Notes: generated by a model not told the origin, from the letters alone. Positions 1 to 51,151 are shown, numbered from the stretch's first letter. The stretch: 64,000 nt of DNA from Patescibacteria group bacterium (GCA_018823885.1 JAHJHG010000009.1:151751-215750), one strand, 5' to 3'. A program made the numbers and translations.

Positions 1-1076
1 CCAGCCTGCGTAATGTTATTGAGAGAAGAGTAAACCTTTTTGGTGTTTCAGAACCTAATGTTCAGTCTTCTTCATTTGAAGATAAGGATAGGATAATAGT
101 TGAGCTTCCCGGAGTTAAAGATACGGAAGAAGCAGTGGGCATTATTGGTAAAACTGCCCAACTGGTATTTGCTGAGTTAAGTGATGAAGAAGGAGGGGGT
201 TTAATTCCTACGGAGTTAACTGGTGCGTTCTTAAAAGATGCAAGTGTTGTTTTTGATAGAAATGTCGGTAAGCCAGCTGTGTCAATTGAGTTCACTCAAG
301 AAGGCTCAGAACTGTTTGCAGAAATTACCGGAAGAAATGTTGGTAAGCCACTAGCAATAGTATTAGATAATATGCCGGTTTCGGCACCCATGGTTCAGGA
401 ACAAATAGTGGGTGGTTCGGCCCAGATTACTGGAGAGTTTACTCAAGAGCAGGCCAGAGATTTAGCCATTCAGCTTAATGCTGGAGCCCTTCCCCTTAAT
501 ATAGAACTTATTGAACAAAGGACTGTAGGAGCTACTTTGGGAGGAGAATCTGTTGAAAGGAGCATTAAGGCAGGACTTGTAGGCTTATTAATGGTTCTTA
601 TCTTTATGGTTCTAGCCTATGGGAAATTAGGCTTCTACGCTGATTTAGCCTTGGTTGTTTTTGGGGTTTTAACCCTAGCCTTATACAAGTTAATACCAAT
701 AGTACTCACCCTGCCTGGTATTGCTGGATTTTTACTTTCCGTGGGTATGGCCGTGGATTCAAATATTCTAATTTTTGAGAGGTTTAAGGAGGAAAAGAAG
801 AGGCGTGATTATGCCAACGCATTAGAGATTTCCTTTGGAAGAGCCTGGGATTCAATTAGGGATGCAAATATAGCCACCTTGGTCACGGCGTTTATCTTAG
901 CCAATCCCCTCGATCTCTCTTTTCTTCACACTTCGGGTCCAGTGAGAGGTTTTGCTATCACTCTGGCCTTGGGAATCGGTATCAGTTTGTTTACAGGTAT
1001 AGTTGTTACCAGAAACCTACTTAGGGTGTTTGTTAGGGAAGGAAGAGAGGAAAAGGGAAAGGAAGGTAAAAAATAA
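1..1076 (+). CDS. secD: Protein translocase subunit SecD (5' end lies outside the window; reading frame is open from base 3)
   Basis: Frame 3 translates from base 3 as SLRNVIERRVNLFGVSEPNVQ...GKTAQLVF, typical SecD periplasmic and TM regions. It is followed by secF with a taATGa overlap. Confidence 0.85.
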   Translation, partial: SLRNVIERRVNLFGVSEPNVQSSSFEDKDRIIVELPGVKDTEEAVGIIGKTAQLVFAELSDEEGGGLIPTELTGAFLKDASVVFDRNVGKPAVSIEFTQEGSELFAEITGRNVGKPLAIVLDNMPVSAPMVQEQIVGGSAQITGEFTQEQARDLAIQLNAGALPLNIELIEQRTVGATLGGESVERSIKAGLVGLLMVLIFMVLAYGKLGFYADLALVVFGVLTLALYKLIPIVLTLPGIAGFLLSVGMAVDSNILIFERFKEEKKRRDYANALEISFGRAWDSIRDANIATLVTAFILANPLDLSFLHTSGPVRGFAITLALGIGISLFTGIVVTRNLLRVFVREGREEKGKEGKK

Positions 1077-1981
1077 TGATTAATTGGTTGAAATACAAAA
1101 AAATATATTTCACTGTTTCCGCGATCTTAATTGCGGTTTCTATCTATTCTCTTGTCACTTGGGGCTTAAAGCTGGGAGTTGATTTTAGAGGCGGGACAAT
1201 CATTGAGTATAAATTTGCCAACCAATTTTCAACAGAAGAGGTTATTAAAGAGATAGAAGAGAAAGGATTAGAAGTTACTTCAGTTCAACAAACAGGCGAT
1301 GATACTTATTTGTTTAAATTGCCTCCGATTAATACTGAAGACAAGATAACTATTGAAGGGGTGCTCCTAAATGTTACCAATGCGGAAGAAGAAACGGATG
1401 TGGATGAATTAAGATTTGAGACAGTTGGCCCTTCTGTTGGTCCGGAACTTATTAAAAAAACAGTCTATGCCATTCTGATTGCGGCAGGAGCAATGCTTCT
1501 TTGGATTGCTTATCAGTTCAAGAGTTTTAAATTTGGAGTATCAGCCATTCTAGCCATGTTCCATGACAGCTTCATCTTAATTGGCTCTTTTGCCATCCTA
1601 GGCCATTTCATGTCTGCCGAGATTGATTTCCTTTTTGTTACTGCTCTTCTGACTACTCTTTCGTTCTCGGTTCATGACACGATTGTTGTTTTTGACAGAA
1701 TTAGGGAAATTAAGAAAACACAAGGGGGAGAGATGGTTGATGTTGCTAATAGAGCCTTAACGGAAACAATGGTCAGGAGTTTGAATAATTCCTTCACCAT
1801 TGCCTTCATGTTGATGGCCCTACTTCTTTTGGGTGGAACAACAGTTAAATGGTTTGCAGCGGCACTATTAATAGGAACAATACTAGGAACATATTCTTCT
1901 CCTTTTGTGGCTACACCCCTTCTTATCAGTTGGGATGGGGTTGGTGAAAGAATCAAGTCGATAAAAATAATGAGAAAGTAA
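1076..1981 (+). CDS. secF: Protein translocase subunit SecF
   Basis: 301 aa with the conserved GVDFRGGT motif and multiple TM segments. Directly downstream of secD. Confidence 0.85.
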   Translation: MINWLKYKKIYFTVSAILIAVSIYSLVTWGLKLGVDFRGGTIIEYKFANQFSTEEVIKEIEEKGLEVTSVQQTGDDTYLFKLPPINTEDKITIEGVLLNVTNAEEETDVDELRFETVGPSVGPELIKKTVYAILIAAGAMLLWIAYQFKSFKFGVSAILAMFHDSFILIGSFAILGHFMSAEIDFLFVTALLTTLSFSVHDTIVVFDRIREIKKTQGGEMVDVANRALTETMVRSLNNSFTIAFMLMALLLLGGTTVKWFAAALLIGTILGTYSSPFVATPLLISWDGVGERIKSIKIMRK

Positions 1982-2189
1982 GGGAAACAAGAAATTTCAG
2001 ATCACGACTACGCCGTGAACGTTGTCTTATAAGCGTTGGGAAAGGATTGCGTAGAACTAGCAAACGTTAAAAAAGATTGCTAATTCTCCCAAGCGATTGA
2101 GAAAGAAAAGAAGTCAAAAGAGTAAAAATTTAGTGGATATTGCGCAAGGACTTTAAATTTGACATTATTATATAGAGAAGTGATAATAC

Positions 2190-2468
2190 ATGACCGCCCA
2201 GTCTAAAATGACACTATCAAGGTTTAATGTTGTTTTTAACTTGCCCACTAGATATATAACCGTTAATAAAAAAATATCAGGCGGACAACCCCTTTTGAGA
2301 GGCACTAGAGTCCCAGTTGATTTAATATTCGACTTCATTGTTAAAGGATGGAGCATAGGAGAACTTCCTGCACATTTTCCTGGAATAGACACTTCTTTGG
2401 TTGAAAAACTTGTACGATATCGTTCCATCGAATCCTCACGAGATGAACTCAAAGAGAAAAGAAAATAA
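2190..2468 (+). CDS. DUF433-family small protein (putative antitoxin-like)
   Basis: 92 aa with the GGQPLLRGTRVPVDLIFDFIVKGWSIGELPAHFP core typical of DUF433. Overlaps the next gene. Confidence 0.6.
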   Translation: MTAQSKMTLSRFNVVFNLPTRYITVNKKISGGQPLLRGTRVPVDLIFDFIVKGWSIGELPAHFPGIDTSLVEKLVRYRSIESSRDELKEKRK

Positions 2469-2823
2469 AGGAACACTCGTTTGGGATGCAGGCGCATCAA
2501 GATTACTACAAGAAAGCGCACGAAATGCTGGATATAAGATAATAGCAGTTAATCCTCTTGATAAAACATCGGGTGATCGACTTATTGCTTCCAAATATGC
2601 ACAGGGTAGATTTCCCGTTGTAACTAGCGATAGGACTGCATGGAAAGAGATGCTTGTTGAGAAAGGAGCTACAGCCATTGTGTGTATCAAGAATCCCAGA
2701 AAAGAAGATTTTGGAATAATCAAAAAAAAGCTGGAATCATTTTTAAAGAAAAGCACAGCAAATAGTCTAAGGGGATATATTTGGACAGTTTCTGTAACCA
2801 AAGTTGATAAAAAGAAAATATAG
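2443..2823 (+). CDS. DUF5615-like PIN-like small protein (putative toxin partner of DUF433)
   Basis: LVWDAGASRLL...VVTSDRTAWKEM pattern resembles the DUF5615/Mut7-C-like LVDENL...TxDxDF pattern. Overlaps the DUF433 gene by 26 nt with an ATG at 2443. The ORF track begins earlier, at a TTG at 2401. Confidence 0.5.
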   Translation: MNSKRKENKGTLVWDAGASRLLQESARNAGYKIIAVNPLDKTSGDRLIASKYAQGRFPVVTSDRTAWKEMLVEKGATAIVCIKNPRKEDFGIIKKKLESFLKKSTANSLRGYIWTVSVTKVDKKKI

Positions 2824-2962
2824 TCTTTTGTACCCTATGTATTTTACCCAGCCTATGATATTACATAGCTTTCATGAGTGTTACTATCATAAAACGAAAA
2901 ATGGGTGTCGCCCTCTCGGGCGCTCGCCGACTGATTGACCACCAAACAACCGATTTAAGGGG

Positions 2963-3268
2963 GTGAGTAGGATGATTAAATTTAATTCAACACAAGAATT
3001 TACAAAAACCAATATAAAGAAATTGCCTACCAACAAAGCCATTATTTACAAAATAAAAGACAGCAAAGGCAAAAATATATATACTGGCATAGCTGGAAGA
3101 GGGGAAAGTCAAAATAGATTACTTGCTCACAAGGAATTAAAAAAGGATAAAATTCCAGGAGCGAGTAAATTTCAAATTAAACAGGTTAAAAATAAGGATA
3201 TTGCCAGAAGAAGTGAGAAACAAATAATCAAGAGCGAAAGACCTAAATTTAATAAACAAGATAAATAA
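2963..3268 (+). CDS. Small GIY-YIG-like domain protein
   Basis: AIIYKIKDSKGKNIYTGIAGRGESQNRLLAH matches the GIY...YIG...R pattern. Basic C-terminal tail. Confidence 0.45.
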   Translation: MSRMIKFNSTQEFTKTNIKKLPTNKAIIYKIKDSKGKNIYTGIAGRGESQNRLLAHKELKKDKIPGASKFQIKQVKNKDIARRSEKQIIKSERPKFNKQDK

Positions 3269-3386
3269 CCCAACACGAAAGCCATCTGCAAGTTATGGCG
3301 ATTGAATAAGATTATTAGTGTTATCTAAAAAAATAAAGAGTGGAGTGGAATTAATGAATAAGAAGAAATTAAAAAAATAGAAAAGT

Positions 3387-4072
3387 ATGGGAATAAATAT
3401 GTCAAAGAAATACTGGAAACCCAATACAATAATAAACAGAACCTTAGACGCAACTGGTATAAGGGATTGGAATTTTTTTTCTCAAAAAGCTTTTATAGAG
3501 GAAGAAAAGATGAAATATCTGATGTATTTCAACAAAGAGCACTGGAAACAATTAAGGAATTTGACTTAAAAAAGAATATTGGAAAGTTTTCCTCTTCAAG
3601 TTTTACCAACTTACTTCAAAAAAACGGAGTAAATAACAATATGGATCGACGGATGGTTTGTGAAACGATCCAGTTAGTAAAAGGTGATGCTAATAAAAAT
3701 ATTGTTTCCTACTCGATCAATAAGATAAAAAAGGGAGAGGTTGGTGAAATTTATGAAGAATTGTGCAACATATATGGAATCGCAGATAAAATCGCATGTT
3801 TCTTTTTGAGAGATGTTTCTATTACTTTTAATTTAGATAAAATGATCGACGAAGAAGATTATAAATATTTTCAACCGATTGATACTTGGGTCAATCAAAC
3901 ATCCAGCAAGTTGGGGATCATCGGCCCAGAGTACAATAATGTTCAGGAAATCAAATCCAAAATTATAAACTCATGTCTTAATAACAAAGTATCACCTTTA
4001 CTGTTTAATGCTGGAGCTTGGTATGTAGGAAAACACGCATTTGACATCTTTTTTGAAGAACCATTTAGGTAA
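3387..4072 (+). pseudogene. HhH-GPD-type DNA glycosylase-like protein, reading frame broken at a T8 homopolymer (3473-3480)
   Basis: Two overlapping ORFs, 3387-3569 and 3467-4072 (TTG start), join into one ~229-aa ORF if the T8 run is read as T9. The downstream part carries a helix-hairpin-helix-like IYGIADKIACFFL followed by PIDTWV, resembling the EndoIII-family GxGxKxA...VDTHV signature. Confidence 0.35.
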
Positions 4073-4121
4073 CCCCTATTTATACTGTTTCATTTGTCTC
4101 GTTTAGTTTTAATGTGAGACA

Positions 4122-4424
4122 ATGGTGTTAATGTTTTATACATATATCATACGCACGACGGGGAACACTTTGTACACAGGTCAAACAAATAACCTTAAGC
4201 GAAGAGTAGAGGAACACACAATCCACGGCAAGCGGGCTTCTAAGTATTTGAAATCATTTTTAGGTTGTAAGCTTGTTTACTATGAAATTTATCCTATCCG
4301 AAGCGAGGCAATGCGCCGAGAGGCTGAATTAAAGAATTGGTCTCATGATGAAAAGGAGGATCTTGTTAAACAGTGTCAATTTCCGCTGACAGAATTTAAT
4401 GTGGAACAAAAAGTTCCAATATAG
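4122..4424 (+). CDS. GIY-YIG nuclease superfamily protein (YhbQ/UPF0213-like)
   Basis: FYTYIIRTTGNTLYTGQTNNLKRRVEEH is a classic GIY-YIG N-terminus. Paralogous to 25716-25973. Confidence 0.7.
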   Translation: MVLMFYTYIIRTTGNTLYTGQTNNLKRRVEEHTIHGKRASKYLKSFLGCKLVYYEIYPIRSEAMRREAELKNWSHDEKEDLVKQCQFPLTEFNVEQKVPI

Positions 4425-4434
4425 TCCCAGATGG

Positions 4435-4544
4435 TCAGCCCAATTAGGCACCCTAGCGACCCAGGTGTCTAGAATAACCCGGAAGTTTTTGTTAAAACGC
4501 CAGTTAAAACCTCAAACATTCGTACCACATCCTCACTGTCCGGA
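4435..4544. repeat. Copy A of a ~108-bp direct repeat family (GGCACCCTAGCGACCCA...AAACATTCGTACCACA...CCGGA)
   Basis: Roughly 80% identical by eye to 20853-20960. Shares both ends with 19300-19408. Same orientation in all copies. Confidence 0.6.
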
Positions 4545-4586
4545 AATTTCTATTAAAAATGGTAAAATTGATCGAAACAATCAATA

Positions 4587-7556
4587 ATGATGGAAAATAC
4601 TGTTAAAAACTATATTCAGTCAATCTCCTCAAAATTCTCTTACGAGGAAACTAGCGAGATGGGGTATCGTACTGATTTTGAAATATTGCTTAAAGAAATT
4701 TTCAAATCAATCAAGGTTACTCGCTTTGATCATGATGCGAGAGCCAGACAGGGCAATAAACCGGATTTTGTTGTAGTTAACAATAGCGTGCCTATTTTGT
4801 ATATAGAAACGAAAGATATTGGAAAGTCTCTAGATAAAGTTGAGAAATCAGAACAAATGACCAGATATTTTGGGTATGCCAATCTTGTTCTCACAGATTA
4901 CACAGAGTTTCGTTTTTACAGAAACGGTATTAATTATGGTGAGCCAATAAAAATTGCGGATTATGATATAAAAGATCGAACAATCACTCCGAACCCGAAA
5001 AATTATGAATACCTAGCAAAAACCCTACTTGATTTTACTAAGTCCCACAAAGAACCAATCCGTTCGGGTAAGCACCTTTCAAGAATTATGGGTGGCAAAG
5101 CTCAGAGAATTCGTGATAACACACGCCACTTTTTCTCCAATGGGTCGAAAAAAGATACAGATCTTGTCAAATTGTTTGAAACCTTTAAAAAACTTCTCTT
5201 ACATGATCTGACACCAGACTCTTTCGCTGACATGTATGCACAGACTCTTGTATATGGTCTTTTTGTCGCGCGCTATCACGATAAAACACTTGGTAATTTT
5301 TCAAGACAAGAAGCTCGTGAGCTCATCCCAAATTCCAATCCTCTTTTGCGTCACTTTTTCGATCATATAGTTGGAGCAGATTTTGATAAACGACTTAAAT
5401 ACATTGTTGATGAGTTGTGTGAGGTATTCTCACATGCCGACGTAGCCAAACTCATGGAGGAATATTTCAAGGAAGATTCCCAAAATGGACAAAAAGGCCC
5501 AGATCCAGTTATCCATTTTTATGAGGATTTTTTAAAGAAGTATGATCCAGATTTAAGAAAAAAGATGGGAGCTTACTACACTCCACAACCTATTGTGCAA
5601 TTTATCGTTTGCTCAATCGACTATTTACTCAAAAAAGAATTCGGACTTTCAACTGGCCTTGCTGATACTTCAAAAACGACAGATAATATTCATCGCGTTC
5701 AGATTCTTGATCCGGCAGTGGGAACAGGAACATTTATCAGTGCAGTTATCAGAACAATTTATAAGAGACTATTAAAAAAAGGGCAAAAGGGACGATGGCC
5801 TGCATATGTCCACAATGACTTGCTTCCACGCCTGCACGGTTTTGAGATAATGATGGCTCCATATACAATAGCCCATTTAAAATTAGGTATTGATTTTAGA
5901 AAGACTGGATTTTGGGATTTCCATCGTCGTTTGGGTATTTATCTTACTAATTCACTAGAGGAAAGTAGTATCCAACAGCAAGATTTATTTGCATTTGGTT
6001 TGGCAGAAAGTATCGCTGAAGAATCAAAAGAGGCATCAGTCATTAAGAACAAAACTCCAATTATGGTTGTAATTGGCAATCCACCTTATAGTGTTAGTTC
6101 ATCAAATGTAAATGCATATACAAAGAAATTAATAGAAGTATATAAAAGAGGCTTAAATTTAAGAAATACACAACCGTTATCTGATGATTATATTAAGTTT
6201 ATAAGATTGGCTGAAGTTTTAATAAATAAAAATAAAAGTGGAATAGTTGCGTATATTTCAAACAGATCTTTCTTGGAGGGTATTATCCATAAATCAATGA
6301 GAGCGTCACTTCTTGGTTCGTTTGATGATATATACATTGTTGACTTAAACGGTGATGCGACAATCAATCAAACAAGAGATAATCCTGATAATGATCAAAA
6401 TGTTTTTGATATAAAACAAGGTGTAGCAATATCAATTTTTGTGAAAAAGGTAAATAGTGTTACAGAGAAAAAATTAAATTATTTTAGTGTTCGTGGCAGT
6501 CGATTATCAAAGTTTGATTTTTTAAGTAGCACAAAATTAAGTGATATTGATTTTTCTGAACTCCAACCAAATTCAGAATTCAATTTTTTTGTTGAAAAAG
6601 ACTTAACTAATGATGAGTACGTAAAATTTATTTCTCTAGACGAAATATTTAATGTCCATTCAAGTGCAATAGCAACATCTGATGATAACAACTTGGTATC
6701 GTTTACAAAAAGAGACGAATATAAAATCCCGTTTTCGTACAGACCCTTTGATCAGAGATATATCAATTATGATTTGAAGAAAGTAAAAGGTAATCGTTAT
6801 AATCGTTTGGTTAAATTTTTAATAAATGAAGAATTTAGTGAACTTTTTGAAAATATAAGTTTGGCTTGCTCAAAAAATATCACAACAGAAAGTTTCTCTA
6901 GTGTTTTAGCTAGTAAATCACTTATTGAAAGGAAGTTTTGTGATTATTCAAGAGGCCCACATGTTTTTCCTCTTTACATATACAATGGCAAGGAATCACG
7001 TATCTCAAATGTGAACAATAATTTTACTGCTAATGTATCTCGAATAGTTGGTGATGTATATCCTGAAGATATTTTTGATTATATTTATGCAGTTTTATAC
7101 TCACCCAGCTACCGTGAGGAATACAGGGAATTTTTGAAAATTGATTTTCCAAGAATTCCATATCCTAAGAATAAAGAAGGTTTTAAAAAACTTGTTTCGC
7201 TCGGAAACGAATTAAGAGCACTTCATTTACTGGAATCGTCGAAGTTGAATCAATTCATTACTACTTATTCTATTGATGGGTCTAATATTGTAGAAGAAAC
7301 AAATTACCAAAATGGGAATGTTCGTATCAATGAAAATCAATATTTTGGGAATGTTCCAGAAATAGCCTGGAATTTTCATATCGGCGGGTATCGACCAGCT
7401 CAAAAATGGCTAAAAGATCGCAAAGGTCGAAAATTAATCAATAAAGACCTTGAACATTATCAGAAAATAATTGTTGTTTTGGTAGAGACGGTAAAGATTA
7501 TGGAAGAGATAGATAAATTTTACAATTTGGTAATAAGTTCCTCAAAAAGCCAATGA
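4587..7556 (+). CDS. Type IIG restriction-modification enzyme (fused PD-(D/E)xK endonuclease, gamma-class N6-adenine methyltransferase and C-terminal specificity domain; MmeI/Eco57I-like)
   Basis: N-terminal PDFVVV...ILYIETKD (PD...ExK). GAYYTPQPIV (Eco57I-family MTase signature). DPAVGTGTF (motif I). NPPY (motif IV). A long C-terminal domain ends in the GGYRPAQKWLKDRKG box typical of this family. Confidence 0.75.
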   Translation: MMENTVKNYIQSISSKFSYEETSEMGYRTDFEILLKEIFKSIKVTRFDHDARARQGNKPDFVVVNNSVPILYIETKDIGKSLDKVEKSEQMTRYFGYANLVLTDYTEFRFYRNGINYGEPIKIADYDIKDRTITPNPKNYEYLAKTLLDFTKSHKEPIRSGKHLSRIMGGKAQRIRDNTRHFFSNGSKKDTDLVKLFETFKKLLLHDLTPDSFADMYAQTLVYGLFVARYHDKTLGNFSRQEARELIPNSNPLLRHFFDHIVGADFDKRLKYIVDELCEVFSHADVAKLMEEYFKEDSQNGQKGPDPVIHFYEDFLKKYDPDLRKKMGAYYTPQPIVQFIVCSIDYLLKKEFGLSTGLADTSKTTDNIHRVQILDPAVGTGTFISAVIRTIYKRLLKKGQKGRWPAYVHNDLLPRLHGFEIMMAPYTIAHLKLGIDFRKTGFWDFHRRLGIYLTNSLEESSIQQQDLFAFGLAESIAEESKEASVIKNKTPIMVVIGNPPYSVSSSNVNAYTKKLIEVYKRGLNLRNTQPLSDDYIKFIRLAEVLINKNKSGIVAYISNRSFLEGIIHKSMRASLLGSFDDIYIVDLNGDATINQTRDNPDNDQNVFDIKQGVAISIFVKKVNSVTEKKLNYFSVRGSRLSKFDFLSSTKLSDIDFSELQPNSEFNFFVEKDLTNDEYVKFISLDEIFNVHSSAIATSDDNNLVSFTKRDEYKIPFSYRPFDQRYINYDLKKVKGNRYNRLVKFLINEEFSELFENISLACSKNITTESFSSVLASKSLIERKFCDYSRGPHVFPLYIYNGKESRISNVNNNFTANVSRIVGDVYPEDIFDYIYAVLYSPSYREEYREFLKIDFPRIPYPKNKEGFKKLVSLGNELRALHLLESSKLNQFITTYSIDGSNIVEETNYQNGNVRINENQYFGNVPEIAWNFHIGGYRPAQKWLKDRKGRKLINKDLEHYQKIIVVLVETVKIMEEIDKFYNLVISSSKSQ

Positions 7557-7844
7557 GGTACCAAGGTTGACTGGAGGCTCTTTTAGCGGAATGGACCAGT
7601 TGTATTTTGCTCACAAAAACCTTCTGTTAAAGAAAGTTAGGCAGCGAGAAAATAGCAGAAATATGGAAATAACGACACAAGCTAAAGATGGCTATGAACA
7701 ACGTATTGGTTGGATAGAATTTAAAAACAAGGTAATGACAAAAGAGAAAATTCTATTGTACAACTGGTTGCTTTAACAAAGAGCTGGAACGATGGGGGAA
7801 GCAGGTGATCATTATTATGAAGGCACTTGGCAGATGGTTTGAAA

Positions 7845-9203
7845 TCATGAAACCTTTTGTTTAAGGTGGGCCAATAAAGCTTTTTTCTTGTTTGGAATTT
7901 TCTTTTCTTCAACTTCTTCAAAAAGTTGTTCTAATATTTCTCCTACTTTTGGTCCAGGTTTTAAGTTTAATTCCTTCATGACATCATTTCCTGATATTTT
8001 TAGATCATGAATGGTGAATGGTTGTTTTTGAACTTCAATTATTCTTTTTTTGAATTCTTCTAATCTCCACGAGGTTTCTCTGGCTCCACCACCCAGTCTG
8101 TCTCCTACTCTTAAATCAATCATGTCTTTAATGTTTTCTTTACCTACATTTTTAATAAATCTTCTTATTGCTTTGTCCGTTTGTTTTTCATCAACAGTGA
8201 ATTGATGCCACTGAACAAGAGTGATTAGCTTTTCTGATTGTTTTTTTGATAATTTCAATCTTTCAGCTATTCTTTTGGCAATCCTGGTACTGACAACCTC
8301 ATGGTTATAGAAAGTAATTGTTCCATTTTCTAGTTTTCTGTATGTTTGCGGCTTGCCAATATCATGAATTAAAGTAGCGAACCTAACGATAGGGTCAGTG
8401 CTTTTACAATGTTTTAGAGAAAGGAAACTATGCGTACCAACGTCATGAACGTGGTGTCTGCCCGGTGATTTTTGTTCTACGCCAAAAGTTTTTTCAAGTT
8501 CAGGAAGAATTTCTTCCAACAATCCAACTTCTCTAAAGATAATCATGCCTTCATATGGATTAGTAGAGGCAAGAATTTTAATTAATTCATCTTTTGCTCT
8601 TTCTTTGGCTATCTTGTTAATGAGTGGGGCATTTGTTTTTATTGCTTCGAGTGTTTCCTTTTCAATTTTAAAATTAAGTTCTGTGGCAATTCTCACTGCC
8701 CTCATCATACGCAGGGCATCTTCCGAGAATCTTTCTGAAGCTTCTCCCACGGCTCTAATGAGTTTCTTTTCTAGGTCTTTTTGACCATCGTAGGGATCAA
8801 TAAGTTCATACTCATCTTTCTTGCCCTTTTTTCTTTTAAGAGCCATGGCATTGATGGTGAAATCACGTCTTTTAAGGTCTTCTTCTAGTGTTTTTCCCCA
8901 AACGACCTTGTCTGGACGACGCTTGTCTGTATAGCCTGATTCGTGCCTAAAAGTGGTTATTTCATACGGATGGGGCGATGATTCATGACTAATACCGACA
9001 GTACCGAAGGTATTGTCATAGAAACCGTCTGGAAAAATCTTAAGAATCTCTTTTGGAGTAGCGTTGGTGGTGAAATCCCAGTCTTCAGCGCTCTTTTTCG
9101 TCAATAAATCACGCACGGCTCCTCCTACAAGATATATTTCAAATTCTGCTTTCTCGAATTTTTTTAGAATTTCTAATACGAATTTTGGTAGCTGGACATC
9201 CAC
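7845..9203 (-). CDS. cca: CCA-adding tRNA nucleotidyltransferase with HD domain
   Basis: LVGGAVRDLL, a DxD nucleotidyltransferase core, RRDFTINAMA and a C-terminal HD domain (HDIGK). The ORF track extends to 9476, but that 90-aa hydrophobic extension overlaps recJ on the other strand. An in-frame GTG at 9203, 9 nt after a TATAAT box, is the more likely start. Confidence 0.7.
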   Translation of the reverse strand: MDVQLPKFVLEILKKFEKAEFEIYLVGGAVRDLLTKKSAEDWDFTTNATPKEILKIFPDGFYDNTFGTVGISHESSPHPYEITTFRHESGYTDKRRPDKVVWGKTLEEDLKRRDFTINAMALKRKKGKKDEYELIDPYDGQKDLEKKLIRAVGEASERFSEDALRMMRAVRIATELNFKIEKETLEAIKTNAPLINKIAKERAKDELIKILASTNPYEGMIIFREVGLLEEILPELEKTFGVEQKSPGRHHVHDVGTHSFLSLKHCKSTDPIVRFATLIHDIGKPQTYRKLENGTITFYNHEVVSTRIAKRIAERLKLSKKQSEKLITLVQWHQFTVDEKQTDKAIRRFIKNVGKENIKDMIDLRVGDRLGGGARETSWRLEEFKKRIIEVQKQPFTIHDLKISGNDVMKELNLKPGPKVGEILEQLFEEVEEKKIPNKKKALLAHLKQKVS

Positions 9204-9237
9204 TGCGCTACTATTATACTTCAAGAAAGGAGAACCA

Positions 9238-10920
9238 ATGAATACCCAAACTAAAAAATGGGAGGTATTAAACAAATTACCTAAGGGTAAAAAGAAAATT
9301 ACCAGTAATGATATTATTAACACTCTTCTTAAGAGTCGAGGGATAACAACCCCCGAAAAAAGAAAAGAATTCTTCAATCCGGTCCTGCCTGAAAAAATTA
9401 CCTTACGCACCTTGGGACTCAGCAAGGTGGCTGTTGAAAAGGGGATAGCGAGGATAAAGAAGGCCAAAAAGAACAAAGAAAAGATTATTGTCTATGGAGA
9501 TTATGATGCTGATGGCATAACCGGTACAGCTATTCTCTGGGAAACTCTTTTTGCCTTTGATAAAGAAACACTTCCATATATCCCTGACCGGTTTACTGAA
9601 GGATATGGTTTAAATCCCAAAACTATTATTAAGTTAAAAGAGGAATATCCCAATTTAGGATTAATAATCAGTGTTGATAATGGTATTGTGGCCAATAAAG
9701 CGGTCACTAAGGCCAATAAGCTAGGAATGGATGTCATTATTACCGACCATCACAAAAAAGCAAAAACAATTCCTAAAGCACTAGCCATCATTCACACAAC
9801 TGAGATCGGTGGAGCGGCCGTTGCCTGGGTTTTTGCCAGAGAGATTAGGAAAAAACTTCGAATGCCGAAATCTGAGTTTAAAATGGGAGACGGATTGGAT
9901 TTGGCCGCGATAGGAACAATTGCCGATCAAATTTCTTTACTAGGCTCAAATCGTTCTTTTGTGAAATATGGCTTGAGAGCTTTAAACAAAACTATTCGAC
10001 CCGGATTACTTTCTCTTTTTAAAGAAGCAGCTATTAAGAGAGGAGCGATTGGTACTTATACGGTTGGTTTTATTGTTGCCCCAAGAATTAATGCTATGGG
10101 TAGACTTGAACATGCGATGGATGCTTTAAGACTTCTTTGCACAAAAAAAAGAGTTCAAGCAGAAGAGTTTGCTCATTTTTTGGGAAAAACTAACAACGAA
10201 AGACGAAAAATAGTTGATGAAGTAACTATTCATGCAACCGAGGCCGTTAAGGAGACAATGGAAACATCAATCCTTGTTGTTCATGAAAGTTATCATGAGG
10301 GTGTCATTGGGCTTGTTGCTTCCCGTTTAGTGGAAACATTTTACAAACCAACCATTGTCATTTCTCGAGGAAAAGAAATTTCTAAGGCTTCTGCCCGTTC
10401 AATTCCGGGATTTAATATCATTGATGCGATTAGAAACCTGGATAAATTAACCATTGAGGCGGGAGGTCACCCAATGGCGGCTGGGTTTAGTATCAAGACA
10501 AGCAATATAGATAAATTTACTAAGGAATTTGAGAAAGAAACAAAACTTGCGTTAAACGGGGAACTATTAACAAAAAAATTAAAAGTGGACATGGAATTGG
10601 GTTTTGATTTGTTGAGTAAAGAATTAGCGGAGATAATTTCAACTTTTGAACCAACCGGAACAGGGAATTATGCTCCGGTTTTTGCGACCAAAGGAGCAAC
10701 GGTTATTGAAGCAAGGGTTGTCGGCAAAACAGGTACACATCTAAAGTTAAAGTTGCAAGAAAACGACAAGATACTTGATACGATTGCTTTTGGCTTTGGC
10801 CACTTGTCTCCTAAACTTTCTTTGGGAAGCCTTGTTGATGTTGCTTATAATCTAGAAGAAAATGAGTGGAACGGTAGGAAGAGTTTGCAGCTCAATGCAA
10901 GGGATATAAGAATAAAATGA
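9238..10920 (+). CDS. recJ: Single-stranded-DNA-specific exonuclease RecJ
   Basis: DHH family motifs (IVYGDYDADGITG, ITDHH), DHHA1 and a C-terminal OB-like region. ATG at 9238 is preceded by AGGAGAA. The ORF track begins earlier, at 9064. Confidence 0.85.
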   Translation: MNTQTKKWEVLNKLPKGKKKITSNDIINTLLKSRGITTPEKRKEFFNPVLPEKITLRTLGLSKVAVEKGIARIKKAKKNKEKIIVYGDYDADGITGTAILWETLFAFDKETLPYIPDRFTEGYGLNPKTIIKLKEEYPNLGLIISVDNGIVANKAVTKANKLGMDVIITDHHKKAKTIPKALAIIHTTEIGGAAVAWVFAREIRKKLRMPKSEFKMGDGLDLAAIGTIADQISLLGSNRSFVKYGLRALNKTIRPGLLSLFKEAAIKRGAIGTYTVGFIVAPRINAMGRLEHAMDALRLLCTKKRVQAEEFAHFLGKTNNERRKIVDEVTIHATEAVKETMETSILVVHESYHEGVIGLVASRLVETFYKPTIVISRGKEISKASARSIPGFNIIDAIRNLDKLTIEAGGHPMAAGFSIKTSNIDKFTKEFEKETKLALNGELLTKKLKVDMELGFDLLSKELAEIISTFEPTGTGNYAPVFATKGATVIEARVVGKTGTHLKLKLQENDKILDTIAFGFGHLSPKLSLGSLVDVAYNLEENEWNGRKSLQLNARDIRIK

Positions 10921-18889: not shown

Positions 18890-19201
18890 TTGAACATGGA
18901 GAGAAATTTTGGGGGAGTAGTTTGGACAAATCATGCCTTGAAAAGATTAACAGAAAGAAATATTTCTCAGGGTGATGCTTGGGCAGCCTTCAGGCGTCCA
19001 GAGCAATCAGAGTATGCGAAAGCAAAAGGTGCCTGGATATATTACAAAACCTATGGGAATCAAAGAATTGAAGTTGTTGCCAAGCAAAATGAAAAAAAAG
19101 AATGGATAATTCTTTCTGTTTGGTCAAGGCAAGTTTTCAAAAAAACAAAAAAAATGGATTCTCTTGCAAAACTGCTTTGGAAGAGAATTTTTAAGAAATA
19201 G
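18890..19201 (+). CDS. DUF4258-like small protein (putative BECR-fold toxin-like RNase domain)
   Basis: WTNHALKRLTERNIS matches the DUF4258 signature (TxHAxxRMxERxI). 103 aa. No adjacent partner gene recognised. Confidence 0.5.
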   Translation: MNMERNFGGVVWTNHALKRLTERNISQGDAWAAFRRPEQSEYAKAKGAWIYYKTYGNQRIEVVAKQNEKKEWIILSVWSRQVFKKTKKMDSLAKLLWKRIFKK

Positions 19202-36023: not shown

Positions 36024-37469
36024 ATGGCGGAACAAAGACTTGAAGAAATTCGAAAAATTAGATTTGAAAAAGCAAAAAAGCTGAGAAGTCTGGGCATCAA
36101 TCCTTATCCGTCTAAAGCTCCTAGTAAGCCCGAGAAGATAAGTAATGTGGTAAGTACACTTGGTAAAGAAGCAGTCGTTGCTGGGCGTATTTGGAGCGTT
36201 AGAGAGCATGGTAATTGCTGCTTTGCCGACGTTAAAGACGAAACAGGAAAAATCCAGCTATTTCTACAAAAGAAAAAATTAGGAGAAAAATTCAAATTAG
36301 TAGATCTTCTTGATATTGGGGATTTTGTTTGGGCTAAAGGGGAGGTAATTAAAACAAAAGCTGGTGAAATCTCACTTGATGTTGCTGATCATGGAATATT
36401 AACAAAATCTATTCGCCCTATCCCTTCAACCTGGTATGGATTAAAAGATATGGAAGAGCGTTATCGTCAAAGATATATTGACTTACTTCTTAACGATGAA
36501 CTAAAAGATCTTTTCAAGAAAAAGACTGTATTTTGGCAAAGCATGCGCGAGTTTTTATACGAGAAAGGTTTTTTGGAAGTAGAGACTCCTATTTTGGAAA
36601 ATACGGTTGGTGGAGCTGATGCCAACCCTTTTGTAACTCACCACGATGCTTTGGATATAGATCTCTATCTCAGAATTTCGATGGGAGAGCTTTGGCAAAA
36701 AAGATTAATGGTTGCCGGATTTGAGAAAACATTTGAAATTGGCCGTCAATTTAGAAATGAAGGGATTAGTCACGAGCATTTACAAGATTACACCCAAATG
36801 GAGTTTTATTGGGCCTATGCGAATTATGAAGACTCGATGAAATTAGTGGAAGAAATGTATAAATATGTGGCTAAAAAAACTTTTGGCAAACTTAAGTTTA
36901 AAATTAATGATTTCGAAATTGATCTCTCTAAGACTTGGAAGAAGATCGATTATACAAAGACTCTTTTAGAACAAACAGGTGTTGATATCTCAAAGGCAAA
37001 GACTGACGAGATTAAAGCGAAGTTGAAAGAACTTAAAGTGCCATTCGAAAAGAAAGCGGCAAAGGGAAGGTTAATTGATGCACTTTGGAAGTCAATTAGA
37101 AAAAACATAGCGGGACCGGCGTTTTTAGTTGGGCATCCGGTTGAAGTATCACCTTTGGCCAAAAGAAAAGAGGATGATCCAGATTTTACCGAAAGATATC
37201 AAGTCATTATTGCAGGAAGTGAGATGGGTAATGGATATTCAGAGCTTAATGATCCAGCAGACCAGACAGAGAGATTTAAAGAACAGCAAAAGATGAGGGA
37301 TGAAGGAGATAAGGATGCTCAGATGCACGACCAAGATTTTGTAAAAGCTTTAGAATACGGAATGCCGCCGGTAACTGGTTTTGGTGTTAGCGAAAGACTG
37401 TTTTCATTCTTAGCTGACAAGCCCATTCGCGAAACTGTACTGTTTCCTCTTCTGAGACCAAAAAAATGA
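36024..37469 (+). CDS. lysS: Lysine--tRNA ligase (class II)
   Basis: N-terminal OB anticodon-binding domain. Class II motifs FRNEGIS and GNGYSELNDP. C-terminal GFGVSERL. Confidence 0.9.
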   Translation: MAEQRLEEIRKIRFEKAKKLRSLGINPYPSKAPSKPEKISNVVSTLGKEAVVAGRIWSVREHGNCCFADVKDETGKIQLFLQKKKLGEKFKLVDLLDIGDFVWAKGEVIKTKAGEISLDVADHGILTKSIRPIPSTWYGLKDMEERYRQRYIDLLLNDELKDLFKKKTVFWQSMREFLYEKGFLEVETPILENTVGGADANPFVTHHDALDIDLYLRISMGELWQKRLMVAGFEKTFEIGRQFRNEGISHEHLQDYTQMEFYWAYANYEDSMKLVEEMYKYVAKKTFGKLKFKINDFEIDLSKTWKKIDYTKTLLEQTGVDISKAKTDEIKAKLKELKVPFEKKAAKGRLIDALWKSIRKNIAGPAFLVGHPVEVSPLAKRKEDDPDFTERYQVIIAGSEMGNGYSELNDPADQTERFKEQQKMRDEGDKDAQMHDQDFVKALEYGMPPVTGFGVSERLFSFLADKPIRETVLFPLLRPKK

Positions 37470-50293: not shown

Positions 50294-51151
50294 ATGCGGA
50301 ACATAATATTCTTTTTTCTTATTTTTTTTGTTTTTACTTTTATCTTTACTTCTAAAGTTTCCGCACAGGTTGAAATAAAAATAAATGAAGTTTTGCCGAA
50401 TCCTTCTGGGGACGATAAAGAAGGTGAATGGATTGAAATATATAATTCTAGTGATACGCCTTTTGTAATCGATGGATATAAGCTTAGTGATAGAAACGAT
50501 AAACAAATTGTTCTATCTGGCTCCGTGGAAAAATGGTTGGTAATTTATCCAAAAGGGGAGAGTGGGTTTGCTGTTGCGAATAGCGACAGCACAACGATTA
50601 CATTACTTGGGCCAGATGATAGCGAAATAGATAAATTTATTTATGTAGGATCAAGCGAGGATAAAAGTTGGGGAAGGATTCCAGATGGGGGTGGAATAAA
50701 TTCCGAGAAACTGAATCCAACTCCTGGTGGAGCGAATGAAGCGCCACCAATTCCAACTCCCACTTCAAATCCCACACCAAATCCAACATCAACCCCTGTG
50801 CCAACCGAGAGTCCAACACCAAAACCTACAGTTTTAGCGGTTGCTACCAAAAGGCCGACAATAACTCCACGACCTGTTGTTAATAATAATGAAGGAGATG
50901 ACGGTGATTATGTATTGGGTTTGAGAGATGGGTTATCATCTCCTTCTCCAGATCCCGAAGAGGAGGTTGAGAAAAAATTTCCTTTTATGGCCGGCCTTTT
51001 TCTTGTTGGTGGTACAGGCTTAATTGGTATTGCTGGATACACCTTTATTAAAAATGGGAAGAAAGAATATAATAAAGACAGCAAAAAAAAGAGAAATGAT
51101 GGATTCAATAAAATTGAAATCAAAGGAAACGATAGCAAGGAAAGTTCTTAA
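50294..51151 (+). CDS. Lamin-tail-domain (LTD) secreted protein with a Pro/Thr-rich linker and C-terminal TM anchor
   Basis: Signal peptide. The LTD signature KINEVLPNPSGDDKEGEWIEIYN. A PTPTSNPTPNPTSTP linker. A C-terminal hydrophobic helix. Confidence 0.55.
   Translation: MRNIIFFFLIFFVFTFIFTSKVSAQVEIKINEVLPNPSGDDKEGEWIEIYNSSDTPFVIDGYKLSDRNDKQIVLSGSVEKWLVIYPKGESGFAVANSDSTTITLLGPDDSEIDKFIYVGSSEDKSWGRIPDGGGINSEKLNPTPGGANEAPPIPTPTSNPTPNPTSTPVPTESPTPKPTVLAVATKRPTITPRPVVNNNEGDDGDYVLGLRDGLSSPSPDPEEEVEKKFPFMAGLFLVGGTGLIGIAGYTFIKNGKKEYNKDSKKKRNDGFNKIEIKGNDSKESS

Follow-up and report, generated by a model that had tools for sequence, protein, structure and literature searches.

A glycosylase-like gene with a homopolymer-associated frame break in a restriction-modification island of a Patescibacteria group bacterium

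A gene resembling a DNA glycosylase lies close to a restriction-modification (RM) system on a 64,000-nt stretch of DNA from a Patescibacteria group bacterium (GCA_018823885.1, JAHJHG010000009.1:151751-215750), referred to below as the window. The gene appears as two overlapping open reading frames. The initial annotation, made from the sequence alone, joined them at a run of eight T (T8) and read them as a helix-hairpin-helix (HhH)-GPD glycosylase-like gene that was possibly phase-variable or decaying. The locus raises the questions of where the gene is broken, whether the break is a switch or a lesion, and what an intact enzyme of this kind might do.

Reading frames and position of the frame break

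Much of what had been read directly in the sequence was correct. T8 is present, ORF1 (ATG start, 60 aa; Table 1) and ORF2 (TTG start, 3467-4072, 201 aa) overlap at it, and an extra T in the run (T9) makes the frame continuous over 228 aa plus a stop, as against the ~229 aa given earlier. The motifs GIADKIACFFL and PIDTWV were found in the translation. However, the gene is not split at T8. The ORF2 frame is open upstream to position 3365, and the N-termini of homologues match there and not in ORF1. In the alignment, the upstream extension EEIKKIEKYGNKYVKEILETQYNNKQNLRRNWYKGLEFFF matched homologue N-termini; upstream of the TTG the ORF2 frame reads EEIKKIEKYGNKYVKEILETQYNNKQNLRRNWYKGLEFFFSKSFYRGRKDE, which aligned with the N-termini of the relatives (MNIKKVGEYGQRYKEEFL...DWYxGLxFFFxKSFYRGRKDE). 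The ORF1 peptide did not align. It had been considered that ORF2 alone might start at the TTG with an N-terminus conserved in homologues; in fact, the homologues reach 38 residues upstream of this codon.

Candidate products were scored with an HMM whose training set consisted of 34 intact homologues (230-255 aa) and left out the window protein. ORF2 from TTG 3467 scored 299.0 bits over HMM positions 39-236. ORF1 alone scored 1.0 bit and is unrelated to the family. The T9 fusion scored 298.7 bits; fusion of ORF1 to ORF2 thus brought no gain, and the 229-aa fusion is not a real product. Extension of the ORF2 frame upstream to 3365 gave 338.7 bits, and translation from ATG 3354 with one extra A in a run of seven A (A7) gave 342.5 bits and a full-length match (HMM positions 1-236). 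These scores, together with the conserved Phe-Phe-Phe encoded at T8, indicate that T8 is an ordinary in-frame stretch of Phe codons. It is also unremarkable by itself, since homopolymers of at least seven bases are common in the window (62 in 64 kb, at 38% GC). A gene split at T8, in which T9 or slippage fuses ORF1 to ORF2 into a 229-aa phase-variable glycosylase, is mechanically possible, and T8 is a homopolymer inside the overlap of two ORFs. However, in view of the above scores, the match of the homologue N-termini to the ORF2 frame on the 5' side of T8, the conservation of FFF in the family, and the invariance of T8 in seven assemblies, we regard such a split as extremely improbable.

The gene starts at ATG 3354 and is broken eight codons later, at A7. 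A homopolymer-associated frame break therefore does exist in this gene; the initial annotation had the two frames right but set their junction ~100 nt too far downstream. The A8 version from ATG 3354 reads MNKKKLKKIEKYGNKY... and has 239 aa. Its N-terminal MNKKKLKK aligned with mlkeklkk, the N-terminal consensus of the HMM made from homologues alone, and homologues start with MNIKK, MNLKQ, MNKIKA or MNKLKK. The spacing of a Shine-Dalgarno (SD)-like sequence fits ATG 3354, whereas every in-frame codon of the ORF2 frame is too far away from it. In relatives the gene is one intact ORF, both in a protein search that returned 35 relatives and in all 11 homologues from species-representative genomes, in which the ATG lies 8-10 codons before the conserved YG. 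The public gene annotations of this locus, with products of 201 and 143 aa, are N-terminal truncations caused by the frameshift.

Table 1. Features of the glycosylase-like gene and its island (window coordinates).
Feature	Position	Strand	Basis and remarks
DUF433 gene and overlapping 126-140-aa gene	2190..2823	+	Pfam DUF433, E 9.3e-13; gene calls on an identical contig (L001)
Small ORF with weak GIY-YIG similarity	2963..3268	+	Pfam E 8.7e-4, below the curated cut-off
SD-like sequence GGAGTGGA (GGAG)	3342..3349	+	8 nt upstream of ATG 3354; read directly
Ancestral start and 8-codon leader MNKKKLKK	3354..3380	+	Ends at TAG 3378-3380
Open frame, glycosylase-like body	3365..4072	+	Residues 5-239 of the restored protein; stop 4070-4072; homologue alignment
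A7 run, actual frame break	3371..3377	+	A8 joins ATG 3354 to the 3365-4072 frame
ORF1	3387..3569	+	Incidental ORF in the frame of ATG 3354, past its TAG; not the gene product
T8 run	3473..3480	+	Codons TTT TTT TTC, conserved Phe-Phe-Phe (FFF column); no break
HhH-GPD core, hairpin IYGIADK	3716..3922	+	Lys146 (AAA 3788-3790)
HhH-GPD core, QPIDTWV	within 3716..3922	+	Pro175, Asp177 (GAT 3881-3883)
Small GIY-YIG nuclease-family gene, directly downstream	4122..4424	+	PF01541, E 1.7e-15; not a conserved partner
Type IIG RM enzyme (N6_Mtase and Type_ISP_C)	4587..7556	+	PADLOC REase_MTase_IIG, E 1.1e-237; Pfam domains

State of the A7 tract and explanations of the break

The 5.7-kb island that includes A7 and T8 was base-for-base identical in six other contigs (one JGI metagenome contig, two NCBI MAGs, and three Logan assemblies of different runs). 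Together with the window this gives seven assemblies, drawn from no fewer than five different samples or runs, and all have A7 and T8. One of the six contigs differed from the window by a single base, located elsewhere. The earlier proposal of phase variation was not borne out, as no difference in tract length was seen at the consensus level in any of the seven assemblies. The A8 protein was not found in a collection of ~15 billion proteins. Because the contigs are all identical, they are silent on the long-term conservation of the frameshift.

In the closest homologue (~60% identity), the corresponding position is occupied by an in-frame A7 (ATG AAT ATA AAA AAA GTT), which indicates that the tract in the window is the ancestral Lys-codon sequence minus one A. 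The lesion appears to be recent, since the remainder of the gene is pristine and its conserved residues are all intact. One A would have been lost from the Lys-codon run (A8 to A7) eight codons past the start; translation from ATG 3354 would then end at TAG 3378 and leave the remaining 235 codons out of frame. We hold with fair confidence that 3354-4072 is one gene, that it encodes a 239-aa Ogg/EndoIII-like glycosylase of an unannotated family, and that this recent loss silenced it. We infer that the frameshift most likely silences the gene in this genome, and that the window copy is probably inactive or only leakily expressed. At most, a trickle of full-length protein may arise by polymerase or ribosome slippage on A_AAA_AAA or from rare A8 revertants.

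Several other explanations of the break were weighed. If the real genome had A8 and the A7 were a sequencing or assembly artefact, the otherwise perfect gene would be accounted for, and homopolymers are error-prone in some chemistries. However, the same A7 was present in all seven contigs, from JGI, NCBI MAG and Logan sources, and the 64-kb window yielded no further gene broken at a homopolymer; an artefact is therefore very improbable. Genome-wide decay at poly(A) runs was also considered and rejected, as the three other sites at which a homopolymer indel could fuse long ORFs were ordinary adjacent genes. Another explanation dispenses with frameshifting: initiation, or termination-reinitiation, at a near-cognate codon in the ORF2 frame (ATT 3368 or ATA 3377) would yield a protein that lacks only a few non-conserved N-terminal residues. 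This frame is open from 3365, the conserved positions (from the YG motif on) all lie downstream of ATA 3377, and the stop of the leader overlaps that ATA (AATAG). However, the frame contains no ATG, GTG or TTG before 3467, ATA and ATT are very poor initiation codons in bacteria, the SD-like sequence is placed for ATG 3354, and the homologues all use ATG. Such a start is improbable.

The break might instead be functional, with programmed -1 ribosomal frameshifting, transcriptional slippage or on/off switching through slipped-strand A7/A8 mutation holding a potentially self-toxic glycosylase at a low, tuned level. A simple-sequence tract that sets the frame is indeed present in the 5' coding region (A7, codons 6-8; A8 restores the frame). 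It forms a perfect slippery heptamer, A_AAA_AAA (X_XXY_YYZ), at 3371-3377, in register with ATG 3354 and directly followed by a stop, and a -1 slip on it restores the 239-aa frame as A8 does. The 235 codons downstream are intact, with all conserved residues kept, and A7 is fixed in every assembly of the population. There are also precedents: the slippery sequence behind the dnaX and IS frameshifts is A_AAA_AAG, genes frameshifted at poly(A) tracts occur in AT-rich reduced genomes, and homopolymer contingency loci occur in RM genes. Poly(A) slippage is said to rescue frameshifted genes in AT-rich reduced genomes, as Tamas et al. reportedly found in 2008. The window gene resembles the poly(A)-frameshifted genes and RM contingency loci in that its frame is lost through a one-base length change in an A-run near the 5' end of the coding region, and in its place next to an RM system; however, its tract is short, shows no length polymorphism in the seven assemblies, and is not conserved. 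No stimulatory RNA structure was found downstream of A7 (the fold of 3366-3460 had -5.9 kcal/mol and z 0.25), and programmed frameshift stimulators were accordingly rejected. None of the 11 genome homologues is frameshifted, so the shift is not a conserved feature. The 0-frame product is a meaningless 8-aa peptide, efficient slippage takes a longer tract than A7, and neither the seven assemblies nor the ~15 billion proteins contained an A8 allele. With all contigs identical, fixation may reflect a single clone. The missing stimulatory structure, the lack of a homologue that shares the shift, and the lack of tract polymorphism also weigh against a trickle through slippage or revertants. A functional A7 is thus unlikely, although continued use of the gene, through slippage or a non-canonical start, would likewise be consistent with an intact 235-codon body that keeps every conserved residue and is fixed in all seven assemblies. 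Recurrent N-terminal frameshifts in short members of the family were considered as well and rejected; one such member (P0090) probably has a TTG start, another (P0148) is truncated beside a transposase, and no pattern emerged.

Predicted fold, catalytic residues and family

The proposal of an HhH-GPD glycosylase-like product was upheld by the predicted fold and by a profile alignment in which the HhH Lys and the Asp fall on their counterparts in an Ogg of solved structure. An AlphaFold2 model made on the exact window translation (3365-4069) was all-helical (pLDDT 92.3, pTM 0.90), with a two-lobed all-alpha fold containing a helix-hairpin-helix. The top Foldseek matches were SsOgg, CacOgg, MjOgg and OGG1; in a viral structure library, the only good match was an "endonuclease III" of a haloarchaeal virus. 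The family profile matched the 8-oxoguanine glycosylase of C. acetobutylicum (CacOgg, 3f0z) with E 1.2e-3 and paired ygigdKla...lqPvDtWv with mGVGPKVA...fPVDTWV. In this alignment, K146 corresponds to CacOgg K222, the residue changed to Gln in sister entries 3i0w/3i0x, and D177 corresponds to D241. At E about 1e-3, the sequence link to Ogg is marginal.

The window protein had no match in Pfam (none at E <= 10), NCBIfam, PADLOC, PHROG or PDB sequences, and did not reach the gathering score of PF00730 or PF22175. Among 150 diverse members of the family, weak sub-threshold Pfam matches were to HhH-GPD (15/150), DUF2400 (8/150) and Ogg-HhH (3/150); the best E values were 2.6e-4 for PF00730 and 5.4e-4 for PF22175. 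The 35 relatives from the protein search came from Patescibacteria, Omnitrophota and unassigned contigs, had 230-271 aa save for one fragment, and lacked a Pfam domain. An exhaustive profile search revealed 1,160 representative clusters (50% identity), of which 853 matched below 1e-10. In a pattern-limited scan of ~185,000 species genomes, 11 family loci were found. Members are called "endonuclease III" in some JGI records.

Alignment with the 34 closest homologues showed that the window protein keeps 22 of 22 invariant columns. Lys146, at the catalytic-Lys position in the second HhH helix, is invariant among close homologues. Across the 150 diverse members, Asp177, Pro175, Arg153 and the Asp of DRxM are invariant, and Lys146, Trp179 and the FNxGAW motif are conserved in at least 90%. 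The C-terminal Cys-X6-Cys-X2-Cys-X5-Cys motif of a [4Fe-4S] cluster is absent, and the family has one near-invariant Cys. We conclude that this is a distinct family of the HhH-GPD superfamily, most like Ogg, with the Lys/Asp pair of bifunctional glycosylase/lyases. Judging from these residues, the restored enzyme probably has base excision and AP-lyase activity through Lys146 and Asp177. It would flip the target base into a pocket lined by family-specific motifs, Asp177 and Lys146 would cleave the glycosidic bond, and the strand would be nicked by beta-elimination.

The family was compared with characterised glycosylases. Ogg enzymes (CacOgg 3f0z/3i0w; Ogg2 of Sulfolobus 3fhg, Methanocaldococcus 3knt, and Thermotoga Tm1821 3n0u; human and mouse OGG1) share the HhH Lys followed by P-[VI]-D-T-W-V. 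Like the window protein, they have no Fe-S cluster motif, and the Ogg2 enzymes are of similar size. However, identity is only 12-16%, with a profile E of about 1e-3; FYRGRxDxxS, VNNxxDRxM and FNAGAWYxG, invariant in the window family, are absent from Ogg; and the Lys-to-Asp spacer is 12 residues longer in the window family. Ogg genes lie in the core genome, whereas the window family lies in variable islands. Endonuclease III/Nth enzymes (E. coli 2abk, Deinococcus EndoIII-1/-3, human NTHL1) differ in that the window protein lacks their [4Fe-4S] Cys cluster, has no PF00730 match, and has different pocket motifs.

Genomic contexts and possible role of the family

The gene lies in an RM/defence island, as the initial annotation stated; this was confirmed by PADLOC and by Pfam analysis of the neighbours. 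The island is bounded by secDF and the gene of the CCA-adding enzyme. It consists of the DUF433 pair, a weak GIY-YIG-like ORF, the glycosylase gene, a GIY-YIG gene, and the type IIG RM enzyme, in that order. The DUF433 pair, at the left edge, is toxin-antitoxin-like. The weak GIY-YIG-like ORF also matched an endonuclease family (phrog_16880, E 2.4e-5).

At about 10-11 of 14 annotated homologue loci, RM, Abi, CBASS, GmrSD, recombinase or transposase genes were found within 6 kb (a raw count). One homologue directly follows a type I RM operon and is overlapped by a PDDEXK gene; another adjoins GmrSD, methyltransferases and a reverse transcriptase; AbiEi/AbiEii adjoin a homologue twice. Others lie between an nSTAND gene and CoiA, CBASS and integrases, beside serine recombinases and a type III RM system, or beside a transposase. 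A few members, e.g. in Beckwithbacteria and Saccharibacteria, have housekeeping-like surroundings.

No conserved partner gene was found in 62 non-redundant loci, where BLAST neighbour clusters had only 2-3 members, and no Pfam family recurred among 100 immediate neighbours beyond three serine recombinases. The gene thus acts as a stand-alone cassette in variable regions. A two-gene module of glycosylase and nuclease was rejected as a rule, since no neighbour cluster exceeded three members among the 62 loci. The idea came from nuclease-type neighbours, namely GIY-YIG in the window and PDDEXK_1, DUF2779 and CoiA_N downstream in three loci. A NucS-like gene overlaps upstream of the homologue in loci L005/L007. 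A link to queuosine/7-deazaguanine through an adjacent QueD-like PTPS gene was also rejected; both occurrences were in the same genome and count as a single instance. These findings depict the family as patchily distributed and stand-alone, in variable regions where defence and mobile-element genes are often abundant.

That HhH glycosylases can reside in defence islands has been published before. Dag1-Dag17 are single-gene HhH-fold defence glycosylases of Vibrio integrons that defend Vibrio, E. coli and Pseudomonas from phages whose DNA contains 7-deazaguanine (Getz et al., 10.1101/2025.10.29.685425). They have a Lys/Asp/Trp active site, are polyphyletic within the HhH superfamily, with some clustering near Ogg/AGOG, and are enriched near defence and mobile elements and in AT-rich regions (10.1101/2025.10.29.685425). 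By description only, Dags and the window family are both unannotated single-gene HhH proteins whose Lys/Asp pair has a Trp close by, and the defence/mobile contexts of Dags look similar in kind to those of the homologue loci. Their catalytic spacing differs (Dag1 K118, D184 and W188 vs K146, D177 and W179 in the window protein). So do their hosts: Dags are from Vibrio, whereas the window family is from Patescibacteria, Omnitrophota, Bacteroidota and unassigned metagenome contigs, and no Vibrio protein occurred among 102 family profile matches. In END nucleases, a PLD nuclease is fused to an inactivated EndoIII/Ogg-like sensor and defends against hypermodified phage DNA (PMC12191111). By analogy, the window family may likewise represent an HhH/EndoIII-like domain recruited to anti-phage defence; however, the glycosylase domain of END nucleases is dead and nuclease-fused, whereas the window protein is stand-alone and keeps its Lys/Asp pair.

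An antiviral role analogous to that of Dags is our tentative best guess for the family, because Dag-type HhH glycosylases protect against modified-DNA phages and appear similar to it in type of active site and in kind of genomic context. A repair role is possible but on the unlikely side; it is kept in play by the members in housekeeping-like contexts. The family would then be a housekeeping Ogg-like enzyme for oxidised purines in reduced genomes, and its adjacency to RM genes would be coincidental. The closest structures are 8-oxoguanine glycosylases, two examined loci have housekeeping-like neighbours, and the "endonuclease III" labels in JGI records point the same way. However, the distribution is patchy (the 11 loci of the pattern-limited scan), the neighbourhoods are highly variable, and a population that thrives with the gene frameshifted shows that it is dispensable here. 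Housekeeping glycosylases are moreover conserved and syntenic, unlike Dags (10.1101/2025.10.29.685425). The boldest combination, in which the family consists of new single-gene antiviral glycosylases that excise phage-modified bases and A7 is a slippage gate that keeps a self-toxic enzyme near-silent beside the RM system, is rather improbable.

The advance is incremental: the fold, the chemistry and the theme of defence islands had each been described before, and the window copy is probably inactive. What is new is an unannotated family, mostly from uncultured lineages, together with a corrected gene model. Members come almost entirely from uncultured lineages such as Patescibacteria. The family is a sizeable HhH-GPD group with a conserved Lys/Asp pair and has no Pfam, NCBIfam, PADLOC or PHROG model. 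In light of the 2025 demonstration that HhH glycosylases are widespread anti-phage effectors against modified DNA, it may be regarded as a reasonable candidate anti-phage effector, by analogy, in candidate-phyla-radiation bacteria, whose defence biology is poorly known.

Organization of the islet around the glycosylase gene

The glycosylase gene lies in a segment between secDF and cca in which a toxin-antitoxin-like pair, a GIY-YIG ORF, the glycosylase gene, a second GIY-YIG ORF and a restriction-modification (RM) gene follow one another, with housekeeping genes on both sides (see table). Seven assemblies (the window and six further contigs), made from different samples, agreed at every base of this sequence, which therefore looks like a defence islet of one clonal Patescibacteria population. 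When the window was aligned with contig L001, which carries the same island, the sole mismatch in 10,072 aligned bases was at window 8417, inside the CCA-adding enzyme gene.

The left edge of the islet is occupied by a DUF433 gene, with secF on one side and the glycosylase gene on the other. The gene overlapping it had no family match; together the two resemble a DUF433-type toxin-antitoxin pair. The RM gene encodes a type IIG enzyme with an HSDR_N-like N-terminus, an N6_Mtase/Eco57I/MmeI-like methylase and a Type_ISP_C specificity domain. A 988-aa variant was present in related contigs (L030, P0195).

Each side of the glycosylase gene is flanked by a small GIY-YIG-type ORF of about 100 aa. 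The start of the downstream ORF differed between gene callers (84, 92, 97 or 100 aa). Examination of the neighbours of 62 non-redundant loci showed that these two ORFs are not conserved partners of the glycosylase family.

Positions and matches of features in the window and in other loci with family members
Feature	Locus	Position	Match or remark
secDF	window	135-1981	
Islet	window	2100-7800	
DUF433 gene and overlapping 126-140-aa gene	window	2190-2823	DUF433, E 9.3e-13
Upstream GIY-YIG-type ORF	window	2963-3268	weak, 8.7e-4; phrog endonuclease, 2.4e-5
Downstream GIY-YIG ORF	window	4122-4424	clear, PF01541, 1.7e-15
Type IIG RM enzyme	window	4587-7556	989 aa; PADLOC, 1.1e-237
cca	window	7845-9476	
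A7/A8 runs at gene junctions	window	19139-19154, 37460-37466, 51083-51090	1-nt indel would fuse neighbouring ORFs
Member in type I RM operon	L018 / L003 (OZ246419.1)	6001-7453	
Remnant member	L012	6518-6886	C-terminal about 120 residues only
Member after QueD-like PTPS gene	L024	2367-3615	same genome as L065
Kazan/Patescibacteria subgroup	L005	6820-8001	
	L007	5253-6323	
	L037	1678-2748	
	L043	4817-5998	

Other homopolymer junctions in the window

A frameshift reading was also considered for the A7/A8 runs at three other sites, where a fusion would join, for example, LysRS to an HD-domain protein or an LTD-like to a VanZ-like protein. It was rejected; these appear to be normal adjacent or overlapping genes.

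Family members in other genomic and viral contexts

In L018 / L003, only 3 nt separate the start of the family member from hsdR in a type I RM operon, and a PDDEXK_1 nuclease gene shares 8 nt with the member, suggesting that the member and the RM genes are co-transcribed there. The remnant in L012, which lies immediately before a type I hsdR gene and overlaps it, is a decayed family copy in another RM context. In L024, the member directly follows a QueD-like PTPS gene and LuxC/LuxE-like genes; its product, called as 204 aa, probably begins earlier, at a TTG. Because this adjacency comes from a single genome, a link to 7-deazaguanine metabolism is unproven.

BFVD entry R4T712 from Halogranum tailed virus 1, a 240-aa protein annotated 'Endonuclease III', aligned over its full length with the AlphaFold2 model of the window protein (TM 0.66, 18% identity). 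A haloarchaeal virus hence carries a relative of this fold variant.

In the Kazan/Patescibacteria subgroup, an upstream gene of 356-393 aa, which weakly matches a NucS-like nuclease (NCBIfam, 1.1e-5), runs 4 nt into the glycosylase gene, which is followed by a large serine recombinase. The NucS-like and glycosylase genes may form a two-gene cassette that is specific to this lineage and carried by an integrative element.
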